Assembly (NCBI GenBank): GCA_963540065.1
Contig: CAUTNK010000006.1
Span: 50,766 to 114,765, forward strand
Reading direction: 5' to 3'
Length of the DNA: 64,000 bases
Origin: an uncultured Bacteroidia bacterium
GTDB taxonomy: Bacteria > Bacteroidota > Bacteroidia > Bacteroidales > CAJPTX01
Position numbers and translations under genes: made by a program. Shown here piece after piece: positions 29,218-49,560 of this stretch. Below the pieces are notes generated by a model. It was not told the origin of the DNA. It saw only the letters and a list, made by a program, of their open reading frames with translations, and searched no databases. Every line of letters starts with the position of its first letter. Positions within the stretch are counted from its first letter, which is position 1.

Positions 29218-29224
29218 CAATAAT

Positions 29225-30523
29225 ATGCAGCCTATTTATGAAGCTCTAGCGCAAAAACAAGCAAAATTAGCAGTGATCGGTCTCGGTTACGTCGGGTTGC
29301 CGTTAGCTCTAGCTTTTGCTCGTCATTTTTCGGTTATGGGGTTCGACGTCAATGAATCAAGACTTGAGCAAATGCGACACTCCGAAGACCCGAGCAATGA
29401 GCTCCACGCCGAGGATTTCCGGGGTTGCGATATCCAATTTACGAGTTCGTTGGAACAACTTCGCACGGCACGTTTTTTTGTTGTTGCTGTCCCTACACCC
29501 ATCGATAGCTTTAATAATCCCGATCTGAAGGCGTTGTTAGCAGCGACACGTACAGTGGCAGAGGTTCTGAAAAAAGGCGATTACGTGTGCTACGAGTCAA
29601 CTGTTTATCCGGGCTGTACGGAAGAGGATTGTATTCCGCATCTCGCGACGGTTTCGGGTTTGCAGCCTACCGAGGATTTTAAGTATGGTTATAGTCCGGA
29701 GCGGATTAATCCGGGCGATCGCGAGCATACCCTGCACAACACGCAAAAGATAGTAGCTGCTTGCGACAAGGAAGCGCTTTCGGAGATTGCGAAAGTTTAT
29801 GAGACGGTGATTGAAGCAGGAGTCTATCGCGCCTCGTCTATAAAAGTGGCAGAGGCTGGGAAGATTATTGAAAATACGCAGCGTGATGTCAATATTGCCC
29901 TGATGAACGAACTTTCGATAATTTTCGGTCGCCTAGGCATCAACACGTACGACGTCCTAGAGGCTGCTGCTACGAAGTGGAATTTTCTACCCTTCTCGCC
30001 TGGGTTGGTGGGTGGGCATTGCATTGGTGTCGACCCATACTATCTGGTACATAAGGCGAAAGAGCTTAAGTATCATCCGCAAATTATTACTGCTGGCCGT
30101 TTTATTAATGATTCGATGGGGGGCTACATTGCCAAAAAGGTGGTGAAGCGACTCATCCGGAAAGGGAAAGCCATACTCGGGGCGCGTGCTTTGGTGCTAG
30201 GTATCACGTTCAAGGAAAATGTGGCAGATATCCGGAATTCGAAGGTAGTGGATATTATCAACGAGCTTAAGGATTTTGGGATTTCGGTAGAGGTGGTCGA
30301 TCCAAGAGCCAATACCGAGGAAGTGCAACACGAGTACGGTCTCACGCTACAAAAAGCCCCGACGCCTAGGTACGATATGATTATCCTTGCTGTTGCGCAC
30401 GACGAATACCGTAACTGGACAGAAGACTATATCCGAAGCCTAGGGAATGCAGATCTTCTCTTTGTCGATGTAAAGGGCGTGTATCGCGGAAAAATTACTA
30501 GTTTGGACTATTGGAGTCTATAG
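29225..30523 (+). CDS. Nucleotide-sugar 6-dehydrogenase (UDP-GlcNAc/GalNAc dehydrogenase type, WbpA/WbpO/TviB-like)
   Basis: 432 aa. Rossmann motif (AVIGLGYVGLPLA), catalytic Cys context (GGHCIGVDPYY) and the C-terminal UDP-binding domain. Confidence 0.9.
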   Translation: MQPIYEALAQKQAKLAVIGLGYVGLPLALAFARHFSVMGFDVNESRLEQMRHSEDPSNELHAEDFRGCDIQFTSSLEQLRTARFFVVAVPTPIDSFNNPDLKALLAATRTVAEVLKKGDYVCYESTVYPGCTEEDCIPHLATVSGLQPTEDFKYGYSPERINPGDREHTLHNTQKIVAACDKEALSEIAKVYETVIEAGVYRASSIKVAEAGKIIENTQRDVNIALMNELSIIFGRLGINTYDVLEAAATKWNFLPFSPGLVGGHCIGVDPYYLVHKAKELKYHPQIITAGRFINDSMGGYIAKKVVKRLIRKGKAILGARALVLGITFKENVADIRNSKVVDIINELKDFGISVEVVDPRANTEEVQHEYGLTLQKAPTPRYDMIILAVAHDEYRNWTEDYIRSLGNADLLFVDVKGVYRGKITSLDYWSL

Positions 30524-30645
30524 GCTATAAAAACGCGCGTACGAGCCTCCAAAACCCCTAAAACATGAAAAGAAACATCGCGGCGCATGTAGTTGGATAC
30601 CTTCCCAGTGTTTCAATAGTGCTGTTGGCGGAGTGTGGGAGCTAA

Positions 30646-31893
30646 ATGTTTGGGGAAAGGTATCGTTTTGTGCGTTCGTTGCTCACGCTAGGTGTGGGTA
30701 CCTCTTTTGCGCAACTTATTCCGATACTTTTCTATCCCGTCCTTTCGCGACTGTATACCCCATCCGAGTTCGGCGACCTCGCTCTTGTAGTGGCTCTTTA
30801 CGGCGCTTTAGCCTATTTGTTAGATTTACAGTACGAGCGCGGAATTCTGATCCAAGAGACGCAGCGCAATCTGTTCAATTATGTTATTCTGTGCGTGTGG
30901 CTTGCGCTCGTTATGGCTGTTCTGCTATTTCCTATCCTTACGCTGTTGTGGTACGTGGGCGTTTTCCCGTCCAGTATATCTTTCCTGTGGATAGTTTTTA
31001 TTGTCGTAAACGGGTTGTTGTATACACTTTATAATATTCACATTGAGTGGTGTGTCCGCGAGCGTTTTTTTCGATCGGTTTCTGTGCAGCGTTTTTCGAA
31101 TGCGACTACTACCTCGTTGTTCAAACTAGGTTTTGCCTATTGTCCTAGCCTGAAGAGTGGCGGGCTGATTTACGGAGATCTCCTTTCGCGCCTTTTTGTA
31201 GCATTGATGGCAATAGGGCATTTTGTGCATAAACAACACAAGTACTGGTCTTTGTTTTCGCGAAAACGGACGTTTGCGCTTCTGTATCGGTATCGGGAGT
31301 ATCCGAAATATTGGGTTTTGGGAACATTCTTGTACGACCTAGCGCCCGTCGTGTTCCTTATTCTTTTTATGCGCCGTTTCGGAAATGCCGATGCGGGGCA
31401 TTATTCCATGGCACTACTTTTGCTTAGTGTACCGATTACGCTGCTGGGCAAGGCGCTTTCCGATGCTTTTCGCTCGCAGGCGCAAGAGCTCTATAGGGCA
31501 AGTGGTTCTTGTGCTGATTTTTATAGGCGTACGATGCGTTTTTTTTTGCCCCTTACTGTCCTGATGAGTCTTGCGGGGTATTTTCTTTTACCGTTAGTGA
31601 TTCCGTATATTCTAGGTTCGCAGTGGCTATTGGCTTCCAAGCTTAGTGCAATATTGGCTTTAGGTCTTTTGTTACAGATTGCGAGTATGATTGCAGCAAC
31701 ACTTTGGGTTATTACGCATAGGCATCGGGAACAACTGTTTTTTCAACTGTTTTACTTCCTATTTTATGTAGTGCCGCCCTGTTGTGTGATGTTTTTTGGA
31801 TGCGATACTACGGTTACTATTTGGACTCTCGCCCTGAGTCTGCTCTCATACCATATAGTGCTGATTCTGCGGGGATATATCTTAGCCAAGTAG
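30646..31893 (+). CDS. Polysaccharide flippase (Wzx / PST family)
   Basis: 415 aa, polytopic membrane protein. The N-terminal pattern is GVGTSFAQLIPILFYPVLSRLYTPSEFGDLAL. It contains a T9 run at 31539-31547. Confidence 0.8.
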   Translation: MFGERYRFVRSLLTLGVGTSFAQLIPILFYPVLSRLYTPSEFGDLALVVALYGALAYLLDLQYERGILIQETQRNLFNYVILCVWLALVMAVLLFPILTLLWYVGVFPSSISFLWIVFIVVNGLLYTLYNIHIEWCVRERFFRSVSVQRFSNATTTSLFKLGFAYCPSLKSGGLIYGDLLSRLFVALMAIGHFVHKQHKYWSLFSRKRTFALLYRYREYPKYWVLGTFLYDLAPVVFLILFMRRFGNADAGHYSMALLLLSVPITLLGKALSDAFRSQAQELYRASGSCADFYRRTMRFFLPLTVLMSLAGYFLLPLVIPYILGSQWLLASKLSAILALGLLLQIASMIAATLWVITHRHREQLFFQLFYFLFYVVPPCCVMFFGCDTTVTIWTLALSLLSYHIVLILRGYILAK

Positions 31894-32868: not shown

Positions 32869-33543
32869 GTGGTGAGTGACGGTGTAATGCACAGTCGGTT
32901 GGAACAGGATTTGAGTCGTGGCGAGGAGCCTATAGAGGTACTCGGCGAGCTACGATATTGTGGTATAATAGACCATCAGACCTTTGTGAATTTCGTGCAA
33001 ATGAGTCTGACAGACAACGAAAATTTACAACAACTCTTGGATTGCTATCAGGTCTATTCGCGTTCCTTTCATATTACGGTGGAGCTCATGCAGAACGTCA
33101 ATAGGCATGGTGCACGCTTGGGTACAGAAAAAATCATCAACGAACAACGCTCTTCCATAGATTCGCTAAATATGAATCCGTATCCGTGCTGGATATCTTA
33201 CGCGCTTTTGGTTACAGAGGCGGAGGTGATCATACGCTGTTCCAACTTTGTTGTAGAGGGCATGCGTGCGAAACTGGAAAAGAAACTCGGTAATAGCGAT
33301 CGGCTAACCCCCGAAGAAAGCCGAATCATCTACATGACACAACTCTCAACAGGAACCTTAAGCGAACGGGGGGGCGCTGGTCTTGGACTTATAGACGTCG
33401 CGCGAAAGAGCTCCGAATTCCGTTGGTGGTTTACACCGTATAATGACGAGAAGACGCTTTTTACGGTAGAATCGCGTCTTAATCGCGCCGATCTGAAAAG
33501 AAAGCAAGAAGAGTTCCGCGCTCGGATTGCTACAAAGAGATAG
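32869..33543 (+). CDS. SiaB-family (GHKL/RsbW-like) protein kinase
   Basis: 224 aa. It carries ITVELMQNVNRHG (N-box-like), ERGGAGLGLIDVARKS (G-box) and a C-terminal EKTLFTVESRL. The start may instead be the ATG at 32887. Confidence 0.75.
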   Translation: MVSDGVMHSRLEQDLSRGEEPIEVLGELRYCGIIDHQTFVNFVQMSLTDNENLQQLLDCYQVYSRSFHITVELMQNVNRHGARLGTEKIINEQRSSIDSLNMNPYPCWISYALLVTEAEVIIRCSNFVVEGMRAKLEKKLGNSDRLTPEESRIIYMTQLSTGTLSERGGAGLGLIDVARKSSEFRWWFTPYNDEKTLFTVESRLNRADLKRKQEEFRARIATKR

Positions 33544-33600: not shown

Positions 33601-34593
33601 ATGAAAGTCAGTTTTCTCGTCCTGTTGATATTGAGCCCTATCGTGCTGCTTGCGCAATTGGATCGCGAGGCTATCGAACGCCAGCGCATTGTAGCCAACC
33701 ATATAGCACAAGCTACACAGTATACGCATAAGTATACAAAGGATAAACCGGCACCGCAGGGCTATGTTACTTGTGTGACCAAGTACGACCGGAATGGCAA
33801 CCCTACTTCGGTTATTAACTATCGTGCTAATGGCGAGGTCTCGTCCAAGCTTACTTATGTCTATAATACCCTAGGGCAGCGCATCGAGTACAAGAAAGAG
33901 GAACCTGCGGGGAAAGAAGCGAAGAATGGTAAAGCGCAGGACTCGATGAAGCTATCTTACAAGCAAGTACTTACCTACGATGCCAGAGGTTATAAGAAAA
34001 CGGAGACTGGATGGGATGGGACATCGAACTACCGCATCGTCTACAATTACCTCCCCAATGGTCGCTTAGCAGATATCACACGCTTTAATGCCGACAATTC
34101 GGTTGCCGAACGCTGGATCTATTCCTACAACGGGTCGAAGCAGCAAATTCGTGTCACACCCAAGACGGGCGCAGCATATACTGTAGAAAAGGAGTTTGAT
34201 GCCAAGAACAACCTGATAAAGGATACCCAAACCTCGGCTGATGGTAAGGAAATGCGCAAGATTGTCTATACCTACGATGCGCAAAACAGAATTGAGTCGG
34301 AAACAGAAAGTTATGCTGGAGCTTTCCGCCATACCCTGAAGTATATTTTTAATTCGAAAGGGCAGTTGGTGCGGATCATGAAAAAGGAAAGTGCGAGTAG
34401 TAAGGATCGCATCAATAACGACTATGCCTATGACGACGAAGGCAACCTAGTTACCGAGCAGTGGAACGACGGAGACGCATATTCTAAAAAGGATTCGGAG
34501 TTTGACCAGTCCGGCAACATGGTGAAGGTTGATTCCTATTACGCACCCTACAAGTACCGGGTGATGTACTCCTACCAGTACAAAAAATATTAG
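33601..34593 (+). CDS. Secreted protein built from YD/RHS-like short repeats
   Basis: 330 aa with a signal peptide. Recurrent Y-x-Y-D/N-x-x-G-x units are present: YVYNTLGQRIEY, TYDARGYKK, YNYLPNGRLADI, YTYDAQNRIESE, YAYDDEGNLVTE. Confidence 0.55.
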   Translation: MKVSFLVLLILSPIVLLAQLDREAIERQRIVANHIAQATQYTHKYTKDKPAPQGYVTCVTKYDRNGNPTSVINYRANGEVSSKLTYVYNTLGQRIEYKKEEPAGKEAKNGKAQDSMKLSYKQVLTYDARGYKKTETGWDGTSNYRIVYNYLPNGRLADITRFNADNSVAERWIYSYNGSKQQIRVTPKTGAAYTVEKEFDAKNNLIKDTQTSADGKEMRKIVYTYDAQNRIESETESYAGAFRHTLKYIFNSKGQLVRIMKKESASSKDRINNDYAYDDEGNLVTEQWNDGDAYSKKDSEFDQSGNMVKVDSYYAPYKYRVMYSYQYKKY

Positions 34594-35506: not shown

Positions 35507-35514
35507 TATTTTTG
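35507..35514 (+). promoter_or_regulatory. Candidate -7 box TATTTTTG
   Basis: Perfect TAnnTTTG 26 nt upstream of the ATG at 35540. Confidence 0.45.
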
Positions 35515-37351: not shown

Positions 37352-37438
37352 GGAGAGATGCCAGAGTGGTCGAATGGGGCGGTCTCGAAAACCGTTGTAC
37401 TCTTTGGAGTACCAAGGGTTCGAATCCCTTTCTCTCCG
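37352..37438 (+). tRNA. tRNA-Ser (anticodon CGA)
   Basis: Hand-folded cloverleaf. Acceptor GGAGAGA/TCTCTCC, anticodon loop CTCGAAA, long variable arm GTACTC-TTTG-GAGTAC, T-loop GTTCGAATC. No CCA is encoded. Confidence 0.9.
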
Positions 37439-37448
37439 CTGCAAAAAG

Positions 37449-37490
37449 AACAGGGTGTAGATCAACGAGATTTACACCCTGTTTTGTGTT
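37449..37490 (+). terminator. Rho-independent terminator after tRNA-Ser
   Basis: 15-bp stem AACAGGGTGTAGATC / GATTTACACCCTGTT (one G.U pair), 5-nt loop, then TTGTGTTT. Confidence 0.75.
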
Positions 37491-37686
37491 TAAAAACTTG
37501 AGGATAATAAGGTAACAAGACTATTGCTACTGTTGGGTAAACCCTTTATGGAAATATTGCACAATTACTATCAATATAGATTTCTATAGGGGTGTAACGT
37601 GATTCTTCTGAATAAATGTGTTGATAAGCAGGGATTTGAATTGTTTACGCAGCAGGTTATTTCTCTAAATATTCTCGAATAATCAA

Positions 37687-38043
37687 TTATGCAATAGTCT
37701 CAATAAGTTGTTTTTCAAGGTAAGGGTTTACTTCTGACCAAATTTCATTGAACTCTTTGCAGTTGATCGTATCTTCTGGTCTAATGCCATGAACCGCAAT
37801 ATTTATGACGTCATACCGATTGTTAGGGGGTTTTACGCGCCATGTCTTTTTCTCGAAAAGAATACCATTTTTGACAACAGCAATCCCGATCTCACAGACA
37901 GAATTTTTTGAAGAAGTTGCTGTCTCAAAATCAAGCGCTACAAAGTTGAGATCACACAGTACGTTTCGCTGTAGATTGAAGGTGCGGTAATCATCCTCTT
38001 CGCCTATCGCTTCTTGCGGTAATAAACTCTCGTTCTTTTTCAT
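37687..38043 (-). pseudogene. Truncated DnaQ-like 3'-5' exonuclease (N-terminal ExoI segment only)
   Basis: 118 aa with the ExoI motif FVALDFETA. The ORF stops where the ExoII (HNAxFD) motif should begin. The downstream frames are broken. Confidence 0.55.
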
Positions 38044-38080
38044 GGGCTTTTCTTAATTCTGAAAATAGTAACCAATCCCC

Positions 38081-39031
38081 CTATGCCTTCCCCATTTCTT
38101 GACGGAAGTATTCGTAAGTCAAGCGAAGTCCTTGGGATAAGTTGACTGTTGGCGTCCATTGCAACTCCCTTTGAGCAAGCGATATGTCTGGACAACGTTT
38201 ACGAGGATCATCTGCCGGTAACGCATCTTGCGACACTCGGAAAGGGACACCAGCAATAGTTGCGATAGTCTTGGCAAGTTCTGCTATCGTACACTCTACA
38301 GGGTTGCCGATATTCAGCGGCGGATAGCAATGCGGCAACTGTAACAAGCGTACCATAGCCTCAATCAAATCTCCGATATACAGGAAACTCCGCGTTTGTT
38401 GCCCATCACCATATAAGGATAGAGGCTTCCCGTGTAGACATTGGGTCATAAAGTTGCTAATCACCCGCCCGTCATCCATTGACATTCTCGGACCATAGGT
38501 GTTGAAAATCCTAATAATCTGCGTCTGGAGTCCGTATTCTCTTTGATAGGCGACACACAGCGATTCTGACACACGCTTCCCCTCGTCATAACACGAACGT
38601 AAACCGATGGGATTCACATTTCCCCAATAAGATTCTCTCTGCGGATGTTGTAGCGGGTCACCATACACCTCACTTGTGGAAGCAAGCAAGACCTTAGCGC
38701 CTGTAGATTTGGCATGTTCTAGCACATGCATTGTACCTAATGTGTTCACTTTGAGTGTATGAACAGGCATGCGCTGATAAACAGACGGCGAGGCTGGGCT
38801 AGCTAAGTGACATATCCAGTCAAAACTCAAACACATTGCTGCAGGTATCCCTAGCGCCACGTCGTGCTCTAAGAAATGTAGTCGCGACGAAGCGAGACTC
38901 TGCTCTAAATTACTCAATCGCCCAGTACACAGATTATCTATAGCATAGACCTCAACGCCCATAGCCAAAAGCGCATCGCATAGATGTGAACCCACAAAAC
39001 CTGTCGCACCGGTCACTAATACGCTCCTCAT
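38081..39031 (-). CDS. UDP-glucuronate decarboxylase (UDP-xylose synthase, SDR family)
   Basis: About 316 aa. It has VLVTGATGFVGSH (GxxGxxG), the catalytic YDEGKR, and a sequence typical of UXS/ArnA-decarboxylase-like enzymes throughout. The Met at 39031 removes the overlap with the upstream stop. Confidence 0.9.
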   Translation of the reverse strand: MRSVLVTGATGFVGSHLCDALLAMGVEVYAIDNLCTGRLSNLEQSLASSRLHFLEHDVALGIPAAMCLSFDWICHLASPASPSVYQRMPVHTLKVNTLGTMHVLEHAKSTGAKVLLASTSEVYGDPLQHPQRESYWGNVNPIGLRSCYDEGKRVSESLCVAYQREYGLQTQIIRIFNTYGPRMSMDDGRVISNFMTQCLHGKPLSLYGDGQQTRSFLYIGDLIEAMVRLLQLPHCYPPLNIGNPVECTIAELAKTIATIAGVPFRVSQDALPADDPRKRCPDISLAQRELQWTPTVNLSQGLRLTYEYFRQEMGKA

Positions 39032-39732
39032 AGCACACATACACATTCCCCCCTCTCATCAATAACCTGCTGCACTCCATCCAGACGAACGACAAATGCT
39101 ATACCGTTATAAAACGGCTCTATACGCAAATAGCGTTGCGTATAAATCGGCTTCCCCGACTTGTCTATATGCATCCAGCCCTCCAAATCCTGTGCTATAG
39201 CATACCGCTTGTGATATACGCCTAATGATTCATAAGCATAAGGATGCAAGTAACTTCCGTCTCGCGTCATATGCCGATAGAGCCCCGAGGATAGGCGCAC
39301 AGACGACACTCCGTCCTTAAAATCGCCACAGTAGCGGTATACCTCTGGATAAATATACGCCCCATTGATATCTATATGCTTATAACCGCCACCAGCTAAG
39401 CGCACAGGACATAAAGCTTCCTGATAATTACCCACCCAAGCATAACTTTGCTCATAGCTCCGAGTACCGTGCTCGTCAATATGATACCATGCACCATCGT
39501 TATCTACCACAGCAGCCCGAGAGCAGTAATAGCCAAAAACTCGACGGTAACGATGGGCATATAACGGCGTGCCCGAAGCATCGATATGATACCCACCCGA
39601 AGCATCTAATACCGCGGCAATGCCCGGGGGGTGGAAATTGAGTACCTCTATAAAATTCTTACCAAAGAGCCTCCGACCTTCGTATAGATAGTGGGTATTA
39701 TCTAACGAGGTCTCTATCTTCTTCCAATCCAT
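39028..39732 (-). CDS. WG-repeat (KWG-like) protein
   Basis: About 234 aa made of 5-6 degenerate units of the form (W/Y)xHID..G..(I/L)Y...Y: GGYHIDASGTPLY, GAWYHIDEHGTRSY, GGYKHIDINGAYIY, LYRHMTRDGSYLH, GWMHIDKSGKPIY. The start overlaps the carbamoyltransferase 3' end by at least 35 nt. Confidence 0.7.
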   Translation of the reverse strand: MDWKKIETSLDNTHYLYEGRRLFGKNFIEVLNFHPPGIAAVLDASGGYHIDASGTPLYAHRYRRVFGYYCSRAAVVDNDGAWYHIDEHGTRSYEQSYAWVGNYQEALCPVRLAGGGYKHIDINGAYIYPEVYRYCGDFKDGVSSVRLSSGLYRHMTRDGSYLHPYAYESLGVYHKRYAIAQDLEGWMHIDKSGKPIYTQRYLRIEPFYNGIAFVVRLDGVQQVIDERGECVCVL

Positions 39733-41389
39733 CAGGTAAATAAAGTTTGTATTCAATAACGACTCCATCTAACCCCATCCGCGGCATAGCTGCAAGTGCC
39801 TCCTCAGGACGGTGTATTATAGGCTCGCCCCGTACATTGAAAGAGGTATTGATTAGTGCTAATACGCCATATTCTTTGTATAGATGTGAAAGCAACGCAT
39901 ACATCAATAGATTATCGTCTTTACTCTCAATGACCTGTATCCGCGCAGTTCCATTCACATGAACCACACCGGCTAATGCTGCACGATATTCGTCTTTGAT
40001 GTGAAAATCCATCAGCATGTACTTAGCCAACGGCTGAATGGGCGTAGCGGAGACCACTTGAACAATCTCCGCTAGCATAATTGGCGCAATAGGACGATAC
40101 CACTCCCGCTTTTTTATGTGAATCGATACATGCTCTGCCAGTTTCTTATCATTGGCTAATGCAAGAAGGCTTCTATTACCAAGCGCTCGCGGTCCCGCTT
40201 CTCCAAAGCCATTGCAAACTCCTAGTACTTTGCCTGCCATAAGGAGCTTAGCGATGTCTGCTATCAATTCGGAAGAAAACTGCTGCTGTGGAGGGATAAG
40301 CCCAAGCGTATTGAGATACGGACTATGTGTTGCAATAGCATTCCCCTTAAGCCATTCACACAAACTCGCCGCACCTAGACTCAATCCACTATCATTGCAG
40401 CAAGGGGGAATATACACTTGTTCGAAAAGACCGGTTTCTAGCAACTGTGTATTCGTTACAATGTTGAGTGCACAACCTCCTGCATAATAGAGATAACGAG
40501 CACCCGTCTGTTGCTGCAATTGACGGAATTTATCAATAACCTCACGCGAGAAGATATGCTGCAAGCTTGCCGCAACATCTTGCCAAAAGGGTATAGTACT
40601 ATCAAACGATTCGATAGATAAACCGAAGGTTGCCGCAATGGAGGCAAATATCTCTTCCTCTCGATGCCAATACTCCTTGAAATAGTTATGCTCGGCAAGC
40701 CACTGCTCAATATCTGCACGATAGTGTCCCCAACAAGCGTACCCCATCAACTTTCCGGGGACACTGGTGTGTTCGCCGGGAGCTGCTCCTATCATTGCAA
40801 AAGAGAGGGCATTGTCGTTGTAGAAGTTTGCCAAATATTTCGTTTCCCAGCCGTACTCCAACAACTGGATTTTTCCACCTTTGTAGAGAAAAGCAGAGAA
40901 GTTGGATAGACTTGCCGCTCCGTCTAGGTGTACCAGTAAGCTATTCTCTTGGAACGCTCCGTAGAATGGCAAGCAGCTAGCGATATGCGCTAACTCTTGG
41001 GAGCAATTGTAGGCTTCGATCTCCCTTCCCTGCCACGTTTCATACTGATAGTACCCCCATGCGGACTCTAAGTTTTCTGTCAGATGTGAGAGTTTATGCG
41101 CCTCGAACCGAAGCTTACCGCCCGAGGTGATAAAAGCGTTTCCGACAAAGGCATTGACACTCACAAGATCAAACTCCTCCGGGAGTTGGAGTAACCCCTT
41201 ATCAATAAGCTCTTCCAAAAAGAGATCGAGCCGATTGTCATATTTACGACGCGTGTAACGTTCCAACTGAAGATACTGCAACACACGCCCATCCTGCATT
41301 AGACATAGATTGTGATCGTGGGTATAGGCGGGATAATGCAACTGGTTTCGGTCTTTGATACCATATATGGCTAATGTAGCTTTACTCAT
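39698..41389 (-). CDS. NodU/CmcH/TobZ-family carbamoyltransferase
   Basis: 563 aa. Motifs HDHNLCL, YYAGGCALNIVTN and LINTSFNVRGEPIIHRPEEAL match the Carbam_trans N- and C-terminal domains. Confidence 0.9.
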   Translation of the reverse strand: MSKATLAIYGIKDRNQLHYPAYTHDHNLCLMQDGRVLQYLQLERYTRRKYDNRLDLFLEELIDKGLLQLPEEFDLVSVNAFVGNAFITSGGKLRFEAHKLSHLTENLESAWGYYQYETWQGREIEAYNCSQELAHIASCLPFYGAFQENSLLVHLDGAASLSNFSAFLYKGGKIQLLEYGWETKYLANFYNDNALSFAMIGAAPGEHTSVPGKLMGYACWGHYRADIEQWLAEHNYFKEYWHREEEIFASIAATFGLSIESFDSTIPFWQDVAASLQHIFSREVIDKFRQLQQQTGARYLYYAGGCALNIVTNTQLLETGLFEQVYIPPCCNDSGLSLGAASLCEWLKGNAIATHSPYLNTLGLIPPQQQFSSELIADIAKLLMAGKVLGVCNGFGEAGPRALGNRSLLALANDKKLAEHVSIHIKKREWYRPIAPIMLAEIVQVVSATPIQPLAKYMLMDFHIKDEYRAALAGVVHVNGTARIQVIESKDDNLLMYALLSHLYKEYGVLALINTSFNVRGEPIIHRPEEALAAMPRMGLDGVVIEYKLYLPDGLEEDRDLVR

Positions 41390-42027
41390 CTACGTTGTAT
41401 TTTGAAACGGACATCTCGTATTTCTTCGATAGATAGCCCACAAGCGCGTAAGTAAGACTCTATGCCCCCTTCTGCCGCTATCAACGCAATCGCCATCAGA
41501 ATAAGCTCTGCCTGGGTATCCTGTGCACTAGCCAAGTAATCTTGCACGATCTCTTCTATCCCAGCCCCAGTTAGCAAAGCAAGAATCGCGATGATACAGC
41601 CTGTTCTATCCTTACCGTAGACACAATGTATCAATACAGCCCCCGGACTTCGGAGTATTGCGAGCAACGCCTGCCGAACTTGCTCGCGACACCCAACAAT
41701 GAAGTAGCGGTAAGCTATATCATTGCCAGAGCCTGTATGAAACTCGCTTTGCTTAAACCATTCGGACTGCTTCCATGGGTCAAATGGGATAGAGATGTAG
41801 TGCACGCCCTCTAAAACCCCGTGTCGATAAGGTTGTTCTATGACTTCACACTCTGCGCGTAGATCAATAATCGTTGCGATACGGTATTCTTGGCACAACG
41901 ACCGACTATGTGCTTGATCTGACAACATACACAACGCAGCACTACGATAAACGCGCTCCATCGCAAACGAAGAGACGTACTTAGAGGCATCGCGAAAGTT
42001 CAAACAATCGTTTAGGTGGTATATCAT
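41386..42027 (-). CDS. Cys-based (CX5R) protein-tyrosine/dual-specificity-type phosphatase
   Basis: 213 aa. P-loop VLIHCVYGKDRTG (HCX5R[T]) in a Y_phosphatase3-like architecture. ATGA overlaps occur at both ends. Confidence 0.8.
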   Translation of the reverse strand: MIYHLNDCLNFRDASKYVSSFAMERVYRSAALCMLSDQAHSRSLCQEYRIATIIDLRAECEVIEQPYRHGVLEGVHYISIPFDPWKQSEWFKQSEFHTGSGNDIAYRYFIVGCREQVRQALLAILRSPGAVLIHCVYGKDRTGCIIAILALLTGAGIEEIVQDYLASAQDTQAELILMAIALIAAEGGIESYLRACGLSIEEIRDVRFKIQRR

Positions 42028-43085
42028 ATCTCAGACGTCTCAACCTTATTTGCCTCTACAGGTCGGCGCATATTACAGCCTTTACACAACGGATACTCCC
42101 TATAATGCTGTAAGAGATGCTGGTATTCAGCACTACAGAGCACCTCGCGTAAGGTACGCTCCGCTATATTACCAAAATCACCCAGCGCTTGGCGTTGCGT
42201 ATCTGGCGCACAGCAAGGCGATATCTTTCCTGAAGCAGAAATCCACAGCTCTTGTCCTAGAAAAGGACAGATATAAGAGTAGTCGAGCACTTGGTTTGCT
42301 TTCTCCTGTAACGGCAATATATTGTCCAAAATCACCATACTGCCATCTGGCTTTCGATAGCGTACTTGCGCCTCTTTTGCTTTCTCTACAATTTCGTTCC
42401 ACTCTTGGATATACTCCGGTTTCGACGCTATTGCATAGTCCTTAATTTCAGCGAAATGTGTCCACAGTTGATGCCCTTTGACGCGATCTACTCCACACGT
42501 CGCAGCCAAGCGTATGATATCTGGTAATTCGTGCATCGTATGGGACATAAAAGTCAACTGTAGCGTAATGCGACAACGATATCCCGTCGCGGCATAATGC
42601 TGGTCTCGCACGGTTATTAGTTTGTGCAAATTGCTCAATGCAGTAGCAAAATTGCCTCGACGCATCACTCGTTCGTAAGTTTCGGCACAAGCGCCGTTCC
42701 AACTAACTTTAACATCCGAGGTCGTTGGCACAATGAGCTTTGCCCAAGCCTCCACGCCACGTCCAGGAAATGTACCATTGGTGGTAAGGTTAATCTTAAG
42801 CCCATACTCCTTTGCCAACTCATAAATACGATCCATGTGGGCATAAAGCAAGGGTTCTCCCATTGTAGAGGGGATAATTGTATCCACCCCGAGTACTGCC
42901 GCCTCGCTGATGAGTCGCTCCACAATAGGGAGTGGCATACGTCGAGAGCGAATGCCTGTTTTAGCAAACAGTTCCGCCTTAAAATGACTATAGGGGCTGT
43001 GCTCCTCGCACATCACACAATTCAGATTACAATCCTCCGGATTGGTGTCTAGCGTTATACGCCAGAGTTTACTTTCGTTGCACAT
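42024..43085 (-). CDS. Radical SAM enzyme with a SPASM/twitch-like C-terminal Cys cluster
   Basis: 353 aa. It has CNLNCVMC (CX3CX2C), GEPLLY, and the C-terminal CPFLGQELWISASGKISPCCAPD ... PLCKGCNM. Confidence 0.85.
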   Translation of the reverse strand: MCNESKLWRITLDTNPEDCNLNCVMCEEHSPYSHFKAELFAKTGIRSRRMPLPIVERLISEAAVLGVDTIIPSTMGEPLLYAHMDRIYELAKEYGLKINLTTNGTFPGRGVEAWAKLIVPTTSDVKVSWNGACAETYERVMRRGNFATALSNLHKLITVRDQHYAATGYRCRITLQLTFMSHTMHELPDIIRLAATCGVDRVKGHQLWTHFAEIKDYAIASKPEYIQEWNEIVEKAKEAQVRYRKPDGSMVILDNILPLQEKANQVLDYSYICPFLGQELWISASGKISPCCAPDTQRQALGDFGNIAERTLREVLCSAEYQHLLQHYREYPLCKGCNMRRPVEANKVETSEI

Positions 43086-44361
43086 TTCGGAATAACTCCG
43101 ATAAAATCTGACAATGAGCTTCGATGGAGACTACGCGCCCATCCTCCGAATAGAGATACCCCCGCTGCCCCATACGTAAGAGTTCCTCCGCGTGCATTAC
43201 AGCCCATTGCATTTGCTTTCGTAAAGAGGCCGTATCTCTGTGCTTAAACAATAGCCCATTGTCGTGGTGATGCACATACTCAGCCATGCCACCATATTCT
43301 GCCGTAATCACAGGGATGTGACACGCTTGCGCCTCATGAATCACGAGCGGCGAATTCTCTGCCCAGATACTGGGAACTACAATACAGTCCACTTGGTTGA
43401 AGACACGATCGCCCAATTCACTATTGACATATTCGCCACAGAACTCAACTGGGAGGCGACACTGTGCAGCCTGTTCCCTCAATGCGACGGTACTTTGCCC
43501 ATTACTTCGTCCGTAGATCCGGAGTCGCGCATCGCCTTGCAAACCCGAGAAAGCCTCTATAAGCATATTCACCCCCTTAGCGGGTATATGCGTACCTATA
43601 TAGCCAAAAGTAAATGGAGAATGAGGGCAGCGAGGCGTTTGAGGAGGCTGTAAATACTCTAGTGGGAATCCGTAATCGAGATACACTATCTTACGCTCTG
43701 GTAAGCCAAAATCTGTAACAAAGCGCTGGTAGAGATATCGCGCTGGTGCTATAAACAAATCCACTTTATTGATGAAACTGCGTGTAGTCTCCATGCGTCG
43801 CTTAATCCACTGACTCACGGCCGTGAGCTCCCGCTCGCGTTCGTCTTCATGACCAGAGAAATAGACCTCATAACAGCTTTCTGCACATTTGCGATCTTCC
43901 TGCCCTGTACACAAGGCAAAGTTGCAATCTCGCCCAATACTCCGAGTAAGAAATTGACCACGGGGGCACATCAACCAGTAATCATGCAACATATAGACTA
44001 TCGGCACGGCATGTCTATGAAGAACATCGACAATACCCGTAGACAGGTGGGATAGATGCCCTATATACGCTACGTCAGGTTTTAACGTAAGGAGTAACTC
44101 TTCGAAAACAGCATCCATCTGCGCATGACGGTAACCATCCTTCCCCTGCGGATTGTTTACAACATAGATATCCAGTGACGGAGACGCCGCTATATGCCGC
44201 ACAGAGAAGTCACGGGCGTACAAATTCTCTTCTCTTGTAAAGACCGAAACGTGGTGTACTTTACTCAGCTCGCGACATACGGACTGCGAGTAAACCTCAG
44301 AACCGGCATTGTAAACCGGTGGGTAGCCGTGAATAATCTTCAGGATGTGCATTTCTGACAA
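43069..44361 (-). CDS. Family 4 (GT-B) glycosyltransferase with a Cys-rich insertion
   Basis: 430 aa. The C-terminal GT1/GT4 domain carries the E-x7-E-type region (VVPSIWAENSPLVIHEAQACHIPVI). The N-terminal domain has an insertion, CPRGQFL...CNFALCTGQEDRKCAESC. Confidence 0.85.
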   Translation of the reverse strand: MSEMHILKIIHGYPPVYNAGSEVYSQSVCRELSKVHHVSVFTREENLYARDFSVRHIAASPSLDIYVVNNPQGKDGYRHAQMDAVFEELLLTLKPDVAYIGHLSHLSTGIVDVLHRHAVPIVYMLHDYWLMCPRGQFLTRSIGRDCNFALCTGQEDRKCAESCYEVYFSGHEDERERELTAVSQWIKRRMETTRSFINKVDLFIAPARYLYQRFVTDFGLPERKIVYLDYGFPLEYLQPPQTPRCPHSPFTFGYIGTHIPAKGVNMLIEAFSGLQGDARLRIYGRSNGQSTVALREQAAQCRLPVEFCGEYVNSELGDRVFNQVDCIVVPSIWAENSPLVIHEAQACHIPVITAEYGGMAEYVHHHDNGLLFKHRDTASLRKQMQWAVMHAEELLRMGQRGYLYSEDGRVVSIEAHCQILSELFRNVQRK

Positions 44362-44769
44362 CGTTTTCTCAACGATAAGAATCTTGGACTCCAGCTAAAT
44401 AACCGGCAGCATATGCGGCGTGAGGACTTTTATGTCTAACTGTTTCCGCTTGACTTTCGGGCAAAGAATCCAACCTAAGCTTAATTGTTCTCGCCGTTTT
44501 AAGCCATCTTGATACCCTCTTGCTGGCTTCAAGTCACCAATGCAACTTCTCATTCCATTGCCCCGAAATAACAATGCCAAATTTACGTAAAGCACAATCT
44601 TTCGACGTTAAGTTGCTAAGAGATTTTCTAGGACGATTATTAAGGCTACTCCTGTTTGGCTAAAACGAACTCCGAGAGTTTTGGGCGGTTAAAGATTTTT
44701 TTACTATTTTGCATACATAACTGCAGAAATGTGCTCTATCTTACATTATTCTGCACTTAAAATAGAGAA

Positions 44770-46092
44770 ATGGAAATTAGAAGAGATCTTATAGATACGT
44801 TCCTAAAATGGAAAGGGGAAGCTGATAGGAAACCAATTCTCTTGAAAGGAGCAAGGCAAATAGGAAAGACCTGGGCAATGGAAGCTTTCGGTAAAGAGGC
44901 TTTTGAGTTTTGCGCAAAGTTTGATTTTGACCGACAACCAGAATTGAAAAGCGTTTTTCAGACTACTAAGAACCCCGAACGCATCCTTAAAGAGCTGTCG
45001 CTTTATACAGAAGTGCCTCTGGTGGCAGGAAAAACACTCATCATCTTTGATGAAATACAAGAATGTGAGGAGGCACTTAATAGTTTGAAATATTTTTACG
45101 AAGAGGCGCCCGAGTATCATATCATTGCAGCGGGCAGTTTGTTAGGAGTGGCAGTGAAAAAGAAGAGTATGACCGTTCCCGTGGGGAAGGTGCGCATATT
45201 GCGAATGTATCCTATCAGCTTTAGGGAGTTCTTACGTTCGGCAGATGAACGTCTGTTTGAATATGTAGAAGACCTAGAGCAGGCGACACCACTTCCAGAA
45301 ATTATTTTCAACAGGTTAAAAACAGAATACAGACGCTACATGGTCTGCGGCGGTATGCCCGAAGCGGTTATTAGTTTGCTTGATAACAAGGGAATGGAAG
45401 CAGTGGAACAAGTGTTACAAGATATTCTCGATCTCTACGAACTGGATTTTGCTAAGTATGCCACTCCCAAAGAAATACCACGTATTCATACTATATGGCA
45501 TTCTCTTCCGTCGCAATTGGCAAAGGAGAACCGCAAGTTTATTTATAAGGTACTAAAATCTGGTGCACGCTCCAAAGATTACGAGGATGCGCTTCTTTGG
45601 TTGGAAGATGCAGGGATGATTTATCGTGTGTTCAATATTACCAAACCCTCCTTACCAGTTTCAGCCTACGAAGATCCCTCTGCATTTAAGGTCTATGCGT
45701 GCGATTGCGGTCTGCTACGCCGCTTGGCAAAGTTGCCTGCAACTGTTGTGCTGAATTCCACTGCGAATTACACAGAGTTCAAAGGGAGCATGGCAGAGAA
45801 TGCTATTTTACAATCCTTGATGCCACTACTGAAAGACGACGTTCCGCATTATTGGTCGCCAGATAGCAGGGCAGAAGTTGAGTTTATTATCCAACATGGA
45901 GAGGATATTATCCCTATTGAAGTAAAAGCCGAGCAATGTGTCAGCGGACGCAGTTTGTCTGTGTATACCGAAAAATATCAACCCAAACATCGCATACGCT
46001 TCTCTTTTCTTAACCTGCAATACAAGAGTGGTCTACTTAGTTGTCCCTCTCCGCTTGCCGAATGGTATGAGCGCTTCTTGCCGAAGGCATAA
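44770..46092 (+). CDS. AAA-family ATPase with a C-terminal DUF4143-type (restriction-endonuclease-like) domain
   Basis: 440 aa. Walker A LLKGARQIGKTW, Walker B LIIFDEIQ, and a C-terminal EVEFIIQHGEDIIPIEVK (D/E-x-K-like) segment. Confidence 0.85.
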   Translation: MEIRRDLIDTFLKWKGEADRKPILLKGARQIGKTWAMEAFGKEAFEFCAKFDFDRQPELKSVFQTTKNPERILKELSLYTEVPLVAGKTLIIFDEIQECEEALNSLKYFYEEAPEYHIIAAGSLLGVAVKKKSMTVPVGKVRILRMYPISFREFLRSADERLFEYVEDLEQATPLPEIIFNRLKTEYRRYMVCGGMPEAVISLLDNKGMEAVEQVLQDILDLYELDFAKYATPKEIPRIHTIWHSLPSQLAKENRKFIYKVLKSGARSKDYEDALLWLEDAGMIYRVFNITKPSLPVSAYEDPSAFKVYACDCGLLRRLAKLPATVVLNSTANYTEFKGSMAENAILQSLMPLLKDDVPHYWSPDSRAEVEFIIQHGEDIIPIEVKAEQCVSGRSLSVYTEKYQPKHRIRFSFLNLQYKSGLLSCPSPLAEWYERFLPKA

Positions 46093-48516: not shown

Positions 48517-49560
48517 ATGGAAACGTCGAATAATACGCAGATATTAATATATAGAAATAGGGAGGGCGATATTGCTCTTGATGTGCGTCTTGAAGGGGAG
48601 GATGTATGGTTGACGCAGGCGCAAATTGCGATTCTGTTTGGAAAGGCACGAACTACTATTACTGAACACATTGCTCATATTTTTGAAGAGGGGGAGTTGG
48701 ATGAAAAAGTGGTATGTCGGAATTTCCGACATACCACCCCACATGGTGCACTCGAATCTCGTATACAGGAAAGAGATGTAAAGCATTATAATCTGGATAT
48801 GGTAATTTCTGTAGGTTATCGAGTTAAGTCGCTGCAAGGAATCCATTTCCGCCAGTGGGCAACACAGCGATTGCGTGAGTATATTGTTAAAGGATTTTCT
48901 CTCGACGACCAACGATTGAAGAATCTGGGAGGCGGCAATTATTGGAAGGAACTCCTGGAACGTATTCGTGATATCCGTTCGAGCGAGAAGGTGATGTATC
49001 GTCAAGTCTTAGATTTGTATGCTACGGCGAGTGATTATGATCCGAAAAGTGAGGCGAGTCTTCTTTTTTTCAAAACGGTGCAAAATAAATTGCATTATGC
49101 AGCGCATGGGCATACTGCTAGCGAAATTATATATATGCGGGTAGGTAGTGATAAACCCTTTGCGGGGCTTACGAATTTTAATGGACCCTTCCCTACGCAA
49201 GCCGAGGCTATGATAGCTAAAAATTATTTGAGTGAACAAGAATTGCGTATTCTCAATAACTTGGTTTCTGCCTATTTTGATTTGGCAGAAATTAGTGCCG
49301 TTGAGCAACGTGTGATGTGTATGGCAGACCACCTAAGAGAGCTTGATAATATTCTGCAGGCAACGGGACGCCCCTTATTAAAGAATGCAGGGAAAGTATC
49401 ACATAAAGTAGCTAAGCAAAAAGCTAAGCGAGAGATTCAACAGTATGGCGCTAAGATGCTGAGTCCTGTGGAAAAAGCTTACCTGTCAAGTATTACTACT
49501 TTAGAGAAAACAGCTAAGAAAGCAAGCAAGCAGGACACTACTAGCAAGGATGGTAAATAG
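48517..49560 (+). CDS. RhuM-family virulence-associated protein
   Basis: 347 aa. The motifs VWLTQAQIAILFGKARTTITEHI ... YNLDMVISVGYRVKSLQGIHFRQWATQRLREYIVKGF are characteristic of RhuM. Confidence 0.85.
   Translation: METSNNTQILIYRNREGDIALDVRLEGEDVWLTQAQIAILFGKARTTITEHIAHIFEEGELDEKVVCRNFRHTTPHGALESRIQERDVKHYNLDMVISVGYRVKSLQGIHFRQWATQRLREYIVKGFSLDDQRLKNLGGGNYWKELLERIRDIRSSEKVMYRQVLDLYATASDYDPKSEASLLFFKTVQNKLHYAAHGHTASEIIYMRVGSDKPFAGLTNFNGPFPTQAEAMIAKNYLSEQELRILNNLVSAYFDLAEISAVEQRVMCMADHLRELDNILQATGRPLLKNAGKVSHKVAKQKAKREIQQYGAKMLSPVEKAYLSSITTLEKTAKKASKQDTTSKDGK

Follow-up and report, generated by a model that had tools for sequence, protein, structure and literature searches.

Six overlapping genes on the minus strand of an uncultured Bacteroidales genome (38081-44361 of the window, the 64,000-nucleotide stretch of DNA that was analyzed) form, judging from their sequence, a single operon built on a widespread cassette for which no name was found in the literature. 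They encode a GT4 glycosyltransferase, a radical SAM enzyme (rSAM), a Cys-based phosphatase, a carbamoyltransferase (CT), a WG-repeat protein (WG), and a UDP-xylose synthase (UXS) (Table 1). The chances are a little better than even that the operon makes a small cytoplasmic glycoside carrying a radical-made modification and an O-carbamoyl group, UDP-xylose being the sugar donor in this lineage. The first-pass annotation had recognized no described pathway in this gene combination, and full-text literature searches yielded neither a matching pathway nor a description of the core cassette. Surface-polysaccharide machinery, a precursor peptide, and a defense signature were likewise not found for it.

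Table 1. Features of the operon and its flanks (window coordinates).
Feature	Coordinates	Strand	Basis or remark
tRNA-Ser(cga)	37352-37439		flank of operon
DEDDh exonuclease gene, 5′ remnant	37687..38043	-	PRK06195 match; boundary marker outside the pathway
UDP-glucuronate decarboxylase (UDP-xylose synthase, UXS)	38081..39046	-	UXS1 match
WG-repeat protein, six repeats, beta-propeller-like, cytoplasmic	39028..39768	-	Pfam WG_beta_rep
TobZ/NodU-type carbamoyltransferase (Kae1-like + YrdC-like), 563 aa	39698..41389	-	Pfam
Cys-based phosphatase (Y_phosphatase3), 213 aa	41386..42027	-	Pfam PF13350, 112.8 bits
Radical SAM enzyme, one C-terminal auxiliary Fe-S site (twitch-like/reduced SPASM), 353 aa	42024..43085	-	Pfam
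GT4 (GT-B, retaining-type) glycosyltransferase	43069..44361	-	Cys-rich insertion, EX7E motif
5′ leader and probable promoter region of operon	44353..44705	-	conserved, −7 box

The six ORFs lie exactly where the first-pass annotation had placed them, and adjacent genes, read from the sequence, overlap at all five junctions. GT4 and rSAM share 17 nt (43069-43085), the rSAM/phosphatase and phosphatase/CT junctions 4 nt each, and CT and WG 35 nt with the homologue-supported WG start (M13, ATG 39732, 234 aa) or 71 nt with the first ATG. These values agree with the overlaps listed earlier, except that the WG/UXS junction, given there as 0 nt, measures 4 nt (ATGA, with the probable UXS start M6 at ATG 39031, 316 aa) or 19 nt (first ATG). 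GT4 probably begins at ATG 44352 (MHILKIIHGYPP, 427 aa, as in homologues) rather than at TTG 44361. Internal promoter or terminator matches are not in excess within the operon and a single −7 box lies upstream, which, together with overlap at every junction, argues for one operon. The box is of the Bacteroidota type (TAAATTTG, 44578-44585), a motif with matches ahead of many window genes as well. It sits in a leader whose 97.6% identity to the conspecific contig L001 ends precisely at 44705; the supposed degenerate coding remnants at 44395-44700 are thus conserved leader instead. Neither an Rfam match nor a riboswitch was found in 44353-44705, and the fold of this leader is not unusual (z-score +1.4).

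Synteny elsewhere, a check proposed alongside the first-pass annotation, is borne out: the order GT4-rSAM-phosphatase-CT-WG-UXS recurs in six related metagenome contigs (L003, L025-L029) at 56–69% protein identity, backing the co-inheritance of the six genes as one unit. Its presence in independent contigs places the arrangement far beyond chance. Among 16 genome loci from seven phyla, Heimdall- and Promethearchaeota included, GT4 invariably leads the core and is followed by rSAM in all 16, with WG 3′ of rSAM in 15. The core is seen in Bacteroidota, Verrucomicrobiota, Chloroflexota, Proteobacteria, Myxococcota, and Asgard and other archaea. By this synteny, the unit of conservation is GT4-rSAM-WG, usually with a phosphatase, and not all six genes. 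UXS and CT are, on the same comparison, lineage-specific add-ons; elsewhere a GalE-like SDR takes the place of UXS, and a phenol-type O-methyltransferase (OMT) of the COMT family that of CT. The UXS position holds UXS in L003, L025-L029, and L043 and a GalE-like SDR in L038-L041 and L047, and an NTP-transferase accompanies the core in L059; accessory genes encode a kinase, a Pol-beta-type nucleotidyltransferase, and phosphatases. CT orthologues (48–97% identical) are part of the cassette in all contigs that extend far enough, and in each they immediately precede WG on its 5′ side. CT and OMT never share a locus and both adjoin WG, a mutual exclusivity at one place that suggests they are alternative caps. 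WG also occurs in fusions (WG-OMT, WG-OMT-HisPhos, HisPhos-WG, Y_phosphatase3-WG, PhyH-WG-OMT, WG-OMT-GT4), and GT4 is fused in frame to rSAM in L014, L023, and L059; the in-frame WG-methyltransferase and WG-phosphatase fusions tie the parts of the cassette together. A chance juxtaposition of unrelated genes with no functional unit, to which we assign a negligible probability, is refuted by these fusions and by the shared order in many independent contigs and phyla.

Pfam and NCBIfam profile searches retained each of the original enzyme assignments, and the catalytic motifs are intact. GT4 matches Glycos_transf_1 (87.6 bits) and Glyco_transf_4; in a 19-sequence alignment, C132, C159, C163, E335, and E343 are invariant and C151 is nearly so. 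Its closest solved relatives, MshA and BshA, match weakly (23 bits), within the generic C-terminal domain. The rSAM enzyme matches Radical_SAM and SPASM and belongs to a large family (>3000 homologues, the best 120 all ≥54% identical). Its invariant cysteines across 26 bacterial and archaeal sequences are C19/C23/C26, C273, C291, C292, C334, and C337. The five in the C-terminal part fit one twitch-like auxiliary cluster rather than a full SPASM domain, which narrows the earlier SPASM/twitch call to the twitch-like kind. The AF2 model (pLDDT 84) has SkfB, PqqE, BlsE, SuiB, DesII, AbmM, viperin, BtrN, and MoaA as nearest folds, with identity ≤18%. With BtrN, BlsE, DesII, AbmM, MoaA, and viperin, whose substrates are sugars and nucleotides, the enzyme shares the CX3CX2C core and a C-terminal Cys-ligated auxiliary site, a point in favor of a glycoside, but TM reaches only ≤0.67 and RiPP maturases score equally well. 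No NCBIfam equivalog was reached, the best model being a tungsten-enzyme maturase (74 bits versus a 380-bit cut-off).

WG was correctly called a repeat protein at first pass but given little weight there for want of a catalytic motif; it is a core component, 40–57% identical across domains of life, and is fused to tailoring enzymes. Its AF2 model is all-beta (pLDDT 94.6), with distant propellers as the only structural matches (BamB, designed propellers; TM about 0.5). The family comprises 994 representatives at 50% identity (E ≤ 1e-30), mostly OMT fusions. A phosphatase, of either of two unrelated folds that stand in for each other, is present in most complete loci, His_Phos_1 replacing or joining Y_phosphatase3 in other lineages. 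Phosphatase orthologues in L003, L009, L019, L023, and L025-L029 are ~480 aa long with an N-terminal NTP_transf_2 nucleotidyltransferase domain, which the window protein lacks. CT (Carbam_trans_C, 164 bits; Carbam_trans_N, 82 bits) scores 156 bits against TobZ and has the two-domain architecture and YrdC-like GPRALGNRS motif common to TobZ, NodU, NovN, and GdmN. Its score against the NodU model, 145 bits, is far under the equivalog cut-off (1000 bits), and its N-terminal 130 residues are divergent. In the clade of the window, moreover, the Kae1-type metal motif starts with Gln instead of His (QELAH; HELAH in most orthologues). This substitution and the missing nucleotidyltransferase domain suggest that some pathway steps may differ in the window lineage. 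UXS is a full-length SDR match to human UXS1 (332 bits) with TSEVYG, YDEGK, and NTYGPRM intact. It differs from UXS1 and bacterial UXS in its setting, a non-polysaccharide operon; no UDP-glucose 6-dehydrogenase to feed it was found near the operon, the nearest nucleotide-sugar dehydrogenase being TviB-like.

From these genes we infer an acceptor, an order of steps, a radical SAM reaction, a role for WG, and a product as follows. UXS would supply this lineage with its dedicated sugar donor by converting UDP-glucuronate to UDP-xylose; other lineages encode another SDR for nucleotide sugars, in some cases together with a nucleotidyltransferase. The retaining GT4 would join the sugar to a phosphorylated acceptor, and the Cys-phosphatase would then take off the phosphate. 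Such two-step synthase/phosphatase logic is known from MshA/MshA2 and from the sucrose-, trehalose-, and glucosylglycerate-phosphate synthases. Like the cassette, the mycothiol (MshA/MshA2), BshA, sucrose-P, trehalose-P, and glucosyl-3-phosphoglycerate pathways pair a retaining GT4-type enzyme with a dedicated phosphatase; unlike it, they have no radical SAM enzyme, propeller, or carbamoyltransferase. The rSAM enzyme, acting with the WG propeller or on a WG-held substrate, would abstract a hydrogen atom from the glycoside, which would then be remodeled. Radical SAM enzymes are known to oxidize, decarboxylate, dehydrate, and ring-contract sugars. The TobZ-like enzyme would carbamoylate a free hydroxyl via carbamoyl-AMP, giving what would be a xylose-containing, carbamoylated product; with OMT at the same point in other lineages, this hydroxyl may be O-methylated there.

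Glycosyl transfer followed by radical SAM remodeling of the sugar has precedents in HpnI/HpnJ, PtmC, and Cds, and the pactamycin pathway also employs a carbamoyltransferase (PMC9092360). In each case (HpnI/HpnJ in bacteriohopanetetrol cyclitol ether, the pactamycin glycosyltransferase with PtmC, glycosyl-GDGT with Cds) the sugar, once attached, is rearranged by a radical SAM enzyme. The likeness lies in the pairing of the two enzyme types, whose genes in the cassette (GT4 and rSAM) are adjacent, overlapping, or fused. The acceptors of the HpnI/HpnJ, PtmC, and Cds systems are lipids or ACP-bound intermediates and, unlike the cassette, these systems have neither a WG propeller nor a dedicated phosphatase.

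UXS, GT4, and NodU/TobZ-type carbamoyltransferases are also typical of glycan loci, and xylose can occur in Bacteroidota O-glycans. The operon might accordingly place xylose, an O-carbamoyl group, and an rSAM-made modification on LPS, capsule, or the general Bacteroidota protein O-glycan, with lipid-carrier and export genes encoded elsewhere; a TviB-like UDP-GlcNAc 6-dehydrogenase, a sugar acetyltransferase, and a Wzx-like Polysacc_synt_3 protein indeed lie 6–9 kb away (28639-31893). Those genes, however, are on the other strand, beyond peptidase E, a ClC channel, an RHS fragment, and a tRNA. The block itself encodes a single glycosyltransferase and lacks a priming phosphoglycosyltransferase, Wzy, a ligase, and a transporter, in keeping with the original view that the cassette is of neither the O-antigen nor the capsule type, and no Pfam membrane or export family matches any of its six proteins. 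Nor is a flippase or polymerase a recurrent neighbor across the related loci. With the core kept in archaea and Chloroflexota despite very different envelopes, and a phenol-type small-molecule OMT as the tailoring partner elsewhere, surface-glycan decoration is unlikely.

The nature of that OMT, together with a phosphatase family named for protein tyrosine phosphatases, makes an aromatic or protein substrate possible. In a protein- or peptide-directed system, the rSAM, GT4, phosphatase, and capping enzymes would act on Tyr or another residue, and WG, which has several invariant Tyr and His residues, could itself be the target as a folded, Tyr-rich substrate or recognition domain. The best structural matches of rSAM, SkfB, PqqE, and SuiB, are peptide-modifying RiPP maturases, which counts against a glycoside; the closest models in NCBIfam describe maturases of proteins or peptides, and the accessory Pol-beta-type nucleotidyltransferase points the same way. 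Against this, no conserved short ORF that might encode a precursor peptide was found beside the core, and rSAM has one auxiliary cluster where most peptide-modifying SPASM enzymes have two. WG is a confidently folded propeller fused in varying orders to phosphatase, OMT, dioxygenase, or GT4, a pattern expected more of a catalytic or binding module than of a substrate. Dedicated nucleotide-sugar enzymes in the loci (UXS, the GalE-like SDR, the L059 NTP-transferase) count for a glycoside and, like the PhyH-type dioxygenase, suit small-molecule chemistry, making modification of a protein quite improbable.

The preferred reading, a small cytoplasmic glycoside, also has to be weighed against a conflict or anti-phage function, in which viperin-like chemistry would yield a modified nucleotide or nucleoside that is then glycosylated and capped. 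Viperin is among the rSAM fold neighbors, pVip HMMs match weakly (30 and 21 bits), as does the GT4-conflict Pfam family to GT4 (27 bits), and the accessory kinase, nucleotidyltransferase, and phosphatases would be in keeping. Of the six proteins, however, five gave no PADLOC match, and rSAM gave just noise at the sub-family level. The core occurs in five IMG/VR contigs, but these are the only viral-collection matches and at least one belongs to a provirus predicted within the genome of an isolate. A PDC-S01 candidate defense ATPase gene adjoins the operon in the window but is absent from L062 at that position. In conspecific strains the operon is constant and the flanks differ, the reverse of typical defense island cargo, and we regard such a function as very improbable.

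In all conspecific contigs of sufficient length (L062, L063, L065, L067) the operon stands at one and the same chromosomal position, and its G+C content is that of its flanks. Both observations speak against the acquired DNA proposed at first pass, although the patchy distribution of the cassette agrees with it and suggests horizontal spread across phyla. The neighboring exonuclease gene had been rightly described as truncated: the 118-aa ORF, which matches PRK06195 positions 1-83 of 309, is common to the window and L063, and a full 347-aa RNase_T+BRCT gene stands at the same spot in L062, L065, and L067.

The six operon genes form a co-inherited, physically coupled enzyme set, and profile searches with Pfam and NCBIfam support each of the domain calls made in the first-pass annotation, with none of the six proteins reaching an NCBIfam equivalog cut-off. 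Read off the sequence, adjoining genes overlap by 17 nt (the GT4 glycosyltransferase and the radical SAM enzyme, rSAM), 4 nt (rSAM and the phosphatase) and 4 nt (the phosphatase and the carbamoyltransferase, CT). CT and the WG-repeat protein (WG) share 35 nt with the homologue-aligned WG start (M13, ATG 39732). The junction of WG with the UXS gene, initially given as an overlap of 0 nt, is slightly different, at 4 nt (ATGA, M6) or 19 nt (first ATG). The GT4 start is most likely ATG 44352 (MHILKIIHGYPP), which matches all homologues.

Features of the operon and its surroundings in the window
Feature	Coordinates	Strand	Assignment
GT4	43069-44361	minus	ORF listing; Pfam Glyco_transf_4 and Glycos_transf_1
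Radical SAM enzyme	42024-43085	minus	ORF listing; Pfam Radical_SAM and SPASM
Phosphatase	41386-42027	minus	ORF listing; Pfam Y_phosphatase3
Carbamoyltransferase (CT)	39698-41389	minus	ORF listing; Pfam Carbam_trans_N and Carbam_trans_C
WG protein	39028-39768	minus	ORF listing; Pfam WG_beta_rep
SDR (UXS)	38081-39046	minus	ORF listing; extended SDR
Interval from tRNA-Ser to UXS	37440-38080		Contains exonuclease gene (RNase_T and BRCT): 347 aa, full-length, in L062, L065 and L067; 118-aa remnant in window and L063
tRNA-Ser(cga)	37352-37439		
ATPase beside GT4	44770-46092	plus	AAA_14/DUF4143; PADLOC candidate defence family PDC-S01, 543 bits
910-aa ORF	25879-28611	plus	L062-L064 counterpart annotated N6_Mtase, Eco57I/MmeI_Mtase, Type_ISP_C
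Sugar gene group	28639-31893	plus	Hexapeptide sugar acetyltransferase; TviB-like UDP-GlcNAc 6-dehydrogenase (470 bits); Wzx-like Polysacc_synt_3
DUF6272 protein	32869-33543		
RHS-repeat fragment	33601-34593		
RhuM-family gene	48517-49560		

Recurrence of the six-gene order in other genomes, put forward as a check in the first-pass annotation, is borne out by the related loci L003 and L025-L029, all with the exact order; the rSAM of L003 is 63% identical. A genome scan seeded with rSAM and restricted to one genome per species gave 16 loci, distributed over Bacteroidota, Akkermansia, Chloroflexota, Beta- and Gammaproteobacteria, Myxococcota, Heimdallarchaeota, Promethearchaeota and Methanobacteriota. 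Cultivable carriers include Pyxidicoccus caerfyrddinensis (L022) and Dysgonomonas. By tblastn with the six window proteins, GT4 is followed by rSAM in all 16 and then by WG in 15, at identities of 37-59% (GT4), 43-61% (rSAM) and 40-50% (WG). The sole exception, a Dehalococcoidia MAG (L013), has GT4 and rSAM without a detectable adjoining WG. A metagenome scan seeded with CT returned 33 loci (48-97% identity), in which CT lies inside the cassette, directly 5' of WG, wherever the contig reaches far enough.

Enzymes of the radical SAM superfamily combine a CX3CX2C motif with a TIM-barrel-like core. In the window enzyme, the ligands of the SAM-binding [4Fe-4S] cluster in this motif (C19, C23 and C26) are invariant, and the Pfam Radical_SAM score is 43.8 bits against a cut-off of 29.5; motif, profile and the fold of the AF2 model (pLDDT 84) all agree in predicting membership of the superfamily. 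The Pfam SPASM score is likewise above its cut-off (42.6 vs 21.5 bits). A full SPASM domain binds two auxiliary clusters through a seven- to eight-Cys motif, CX9-15GX4C...CX2CX5CX3C...C. Against such a domain, despite the profile score, stands an invariant C-terminal set of only five Cys (C273, C291, C292, C334 and C337) from which the CX2CX5CX3C motif is absent, and a single auxiliary cluster would fit this smaller set. In the twitch type, SPASM is shortened and has some four Cys ligands, with the spacing Cx17C...CxxC in BtrN; the arrangement C273-x17-C291/C292...C334-x2-C337 would fit that pattern. BtrN-type sugar dehydrogenases oxidise a secondary alcohol of an aminocyclitol or sugar by two electrons. 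The nearest folds to the model are SkfB, PqqE, BlsE, SuiB, DesII, AbmM, viperin, EpeE, BtrN (at rank 20-24 only, TM 0.40/0.63) and MoaA, all at no more than 18% identity, a mixture that places rSAM between the peptide-modifying and the sugar- or nucleotide-modifying enzymes. More than 3000 homologues were found, several annotated as GT-rSAM fusions; the best 120 are each at least 54% identical. Exact-sequence look-up with the window rSAM and with cluster member P0131 returned no record.

The WG protein is modelled by AF2 as a six-repeat, all-beta, propeller-like structure (pLDDT 94.6), with only distant relatives among solved structures (TM about 0.5). Its invariant residues include H46, Y70, H96, W111, N114, R123, D149, H186, K187 and N221. 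Its profile retrieves 994 representatives at 50% identity (E <= 1e-30), and the top matches are mostly 540-580 aa long. Pfam assignments of selected long matches reveal WG-OMT, WG-OMT-HisPhos, WG-HisPhos and HisPhos-WG architectures (OMT, O-methyltransferase; HisPhos, His_Phos_1 phosphatase), as well as Y_phosphatase3-WG, PhyH-WG-OMT and WG-OMT-GT4. In-frame GT4-rSAM fusions, checked by translation in L014 and L023, are also seen in L059. Because of these fusions, GT4, rSAM, WG, phosphatase and methyltransferase are taken to act in one process. WG-repeat proteins are common in Bacteroidota and spirochaetes, and neither Pfam nor the source annotations examined give a function for the family; characterisation of the cassette would provide the first.

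Clustering of neighbouring ORFs, together with Pfam, identifies the modules that accompany the core in related loci. Recurrent extras are a COMT-type OMT (PF00891), usually fused to the WG C-terminus, a His_Phos_1 phosphatase, a Y_phosphatase3 with a nucleotidyltransferase domain (PF01909) fused at its N-terminal end, a small P-loop kinase, and a GalE-like SDR that occupies the UXS position of the window operon. The 213-aa window Y_phosphatase3 protein is without the PF01909 domain. The partner OMTs of other lineages are closest to phenolic O-methyltransferases. CT and OMT occur together in no locus of the architecture table, and are thus read as alternative means of capping one position. An extended cassette is present on an IMG/VR contig of 32% G+C with an isolate-like identifier (L059:2869-12489), where an NTP-transferase and a GalE-like SDR accompany a 778-aa GT4::rSAM fusion and a 564-aa WG with an O-methyltransferase-like C-terminal domain. 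Three further ORFs of this contig are assigned from sequence and tblastn: one of 329 aa where the PhyH-type dioxygenase would lie, one resembling an ABC exporter, and one of 354 aa. The exporter-like ORF would hint that the product may leave the cell in that organism.

The remaining enzymes can be placed in known classes with varying precision. Retaining GT4 enzymes have a GT-B fold with an EX7E motif in the C-terminal domain, and the Pfam matches and the invariant E335-x7-E343 predict membership of this class. The Cys-rich insertion noticed at first reading is conserved (C132, C159 and C163 invariant, C151 near-invariant) and is probably a metal site. Assignment to the MshA/BshA-type thiol-precursor glycosyltransferases, which calls for equivalog-level similarity, is ruled out by scores of 37.8 bits against a 462-bit cut-off for MshA and 30.7 against 274 for BshA, and by PDB matches of 23 bits. 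TobZ/NodU O-carbamoyltransferases have a Kae1-like N-domain, whose metal site is His/His/Asp/Asp, and a YrdC-like C-domain that forms carbamoyl-AMP. Both Pfam domains of CT are above cut-off, predicting membership of this class; CT matches TobZ at 156 bits and falls short of the NodU equivalog cut-off (145 vs 1000 bits). Most Kae1-type metal ligands are kept, with H135, D156, D333 and the YrdC-type GPRALGNRS invariant; residue 131, the first His of the Kae1-type HxxxH, is Gln (QELAH) in the window, L003 and L025, and eight other orthologues have HELAH. UXS enzymes are extended SDRs that closely resemble characterised members and have an NAD site (GxxGxxG) together with catalytic Thr/Ser-Glu and YxxxK residues. 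The window SDR matches human UXS1 at 332 bits, and GATGFVG, TSEVYG, YDEGK and NTYGPRM are aligned and conserved, features that identify it as a predicted UDP-glucuronate decarboxylase. A group of sugar genes that includes a TviB-like UDP-GlcNAc 6-dehydrogenase lies 6-9 kb from the operon. If the UXS-like enzyme took UDP-GlcNAcA, its product would be UDP-XylNAc instead of UDP-Xyl.

By predicted activity, the six proteins comprise a dedicated source of nucleotide sugar, one glycosyltransferase, one phosphatase, an rSAM partnered by a propeller, and an enzyme that caps a hydroxyl. None of the six matches a Pfam family of membrane or export proteins, and the operon is read on this basis as a putative cytoplasmic pathway to a small modified glycoside. 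Its logic may be likened, by analogy only, to two-step synthase/phosphatase pathways and to the glycosyltransferase step followed by radical SAM remodelling of the sugar in HpnI/HpnJ, PtmC and Cds (PMC9092360). An O-antigen or capsule locus would hold a priming phosphoglycosyltransferase, several glycosyltransferases, a flippase or ABC transporter, and a polymerase or ligase. As the first-pass annotation had concluded, the block is not a standard cassette of this kind, having one glycosyltransferase and no priming enzyme, flippase/transporter or polymerase/ligase. The Polysacc_synt_3 gene is 6.3 kb from the block, on the other strand and beyond unrelated genes, and clustering of neighbour ORFs reveals no recurring flippase- or polymerase-type neighbour in related loci. 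Decoration of a surface glycan is therefore disfavoured, with both gene content and the spread across phyla speaking against it.

Modification of a protein or peptide is an alternative kept alive by the RiPP-like fold neighbours of rSAM and by the tyrosine-phosphatase and phenol-OMT families in the set, against which stand the folded, variously fused WG domain and the presence of nucleotide-sugar enzymes. RiPP clusters encode a precursor peptide beside the maturase and an RRE domain; no recurring short ORF was seen among the neighbours, in a cross-locus comparison that was systematic for ORFs of 90 aa or more, and the operon proteins have no Pfam match to an RRE domain. Synthesis of a small glycoside can be extended to a fuller, tentative reading, which we consider somewhat less probable than its converse: the GT4-rSAM-WG triad would make an undescribed low-molecular-weight metabolite in many lineages of Bacteria and Archaea, Asgard included, with WG as the obligatory rSAM partner and with interchangeable caps. 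A candidate product is a glycoside made carbocyclic, or rearranged in some other way by radical chemistry, that would act protectively or much like a cofactor. WG would then be a new kind of rSAM partner, a substrate-presenting or catalytic domain, and the same hydroxyl would receive an O-carbamoyl group in Bacteroidales and an O-methyl group in most other lineages.

All the components come from enzyme families already known, and their logic resembles that of known sugar-tailoring pathways. No description of the gene set was found in the full-text literature searched, a corpus whose coverage excludes most subscription journals, and PDB sequence searches gave no close solved structure for rSAM, GT4 or WG, with no useful match for rSAM and none for WG. 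A new, widespread metabolite, formed by the core triad via a new radical SAM reaction, is a substantial possibility. If so, the cassette would stand for both a metabolite and a reaction uncharacterised so far, in hosts ranging from Bacteroidales of host-associated or anaerobic habitats to Asgard archaea. The fusions and the four-gene minimal versions, such as GT4-rSAM-WG-HisPhos of Anaerolineae (L005), offer an experimental handle: the constructs would be small, the proteins soluble and the mass shifts predictable.

Within the host species, an uncultured Bacteroidales, conspecific contigs were defined as those encoding an identical ClC protein; by this protein, the nearest named relative is Ca. 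[Bacteroides] periocalifornicus (65%). The operon is at the same site in every conspecific contig long enough (L062-L065, L067). On the tRNA side, a mobile insertion of 5.6 kb separates the tRNA from UXS in L064 (L064:12060-17400) and encodes a resolvase, GmrSD, a BACON/T9SS protein and part of a DDE transposase. On the GT4 side, the window and L063 share the PDC-S01 ATPase, L062 has a secreted BACON/LRR protein in its place, and similarity to contig L001 ends at exactly 44705. The flanks are thus a rearrangement hot spot around an operon that is stable within the species. Kept in L063 and replaced in L062, the ATPase is best regarded as strain-variable cargo beside the operon. An anti-phage role for the operon itself, of the kind played by prokaryotic viperins and other PADLOC systems, is not supported: PADLOC gives rSAM only pVip matches of 30 and 21 bits and the other five proteins none, and the operon is constant among strains.

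In some strains the rSAM gene was called at 329 aa. A pseudogene is ruled out there, since the DNA of the stretch concerned is identical to the window in L062 and has synonymous differences only in L063; the shorter call thus reflects a different choice of start codon. The 910-aa ORF is, to judge from the annotation of its counterpart, a single-polypeptide restriction-modification enzyme, and the RHS fragment, DUF6272 and RhuM genes likewise point to a variable neighbourhood rich in mobile elements. A compositional island is ruled out, the G+C of the block (0.46-0.49) being no different from that of the flanking 1-kb windows (0.42-0.48). An Rfam Plastid-psbl-rps4 match at 37387-37438 on the minus strand (55.9 bits, gathering score 68) is antisense to tRNA-Ser and almost certainly a tRNA artefact.

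A riboswitch or structured leader is ruled out for the 353 nt 5' of GT4 by the absence of Rfam matches and by a fold z-score of +1.4; this leader contains one Bacteroidota-type -7 box. Scans for sigma-70 promoters and terminators, which are poorly suited to Bacteroidota, did no better here than on shuffled sequence. The -7 motif TAnnTTTG has 56 matches in the window against 46 expected and lies just 5' of many genes and both tRNAs (for example at 35507, 32842, 29198, 20292 and 37324), a pattern that fits a Bacteroidota host and helps to call the transcription units of the window.
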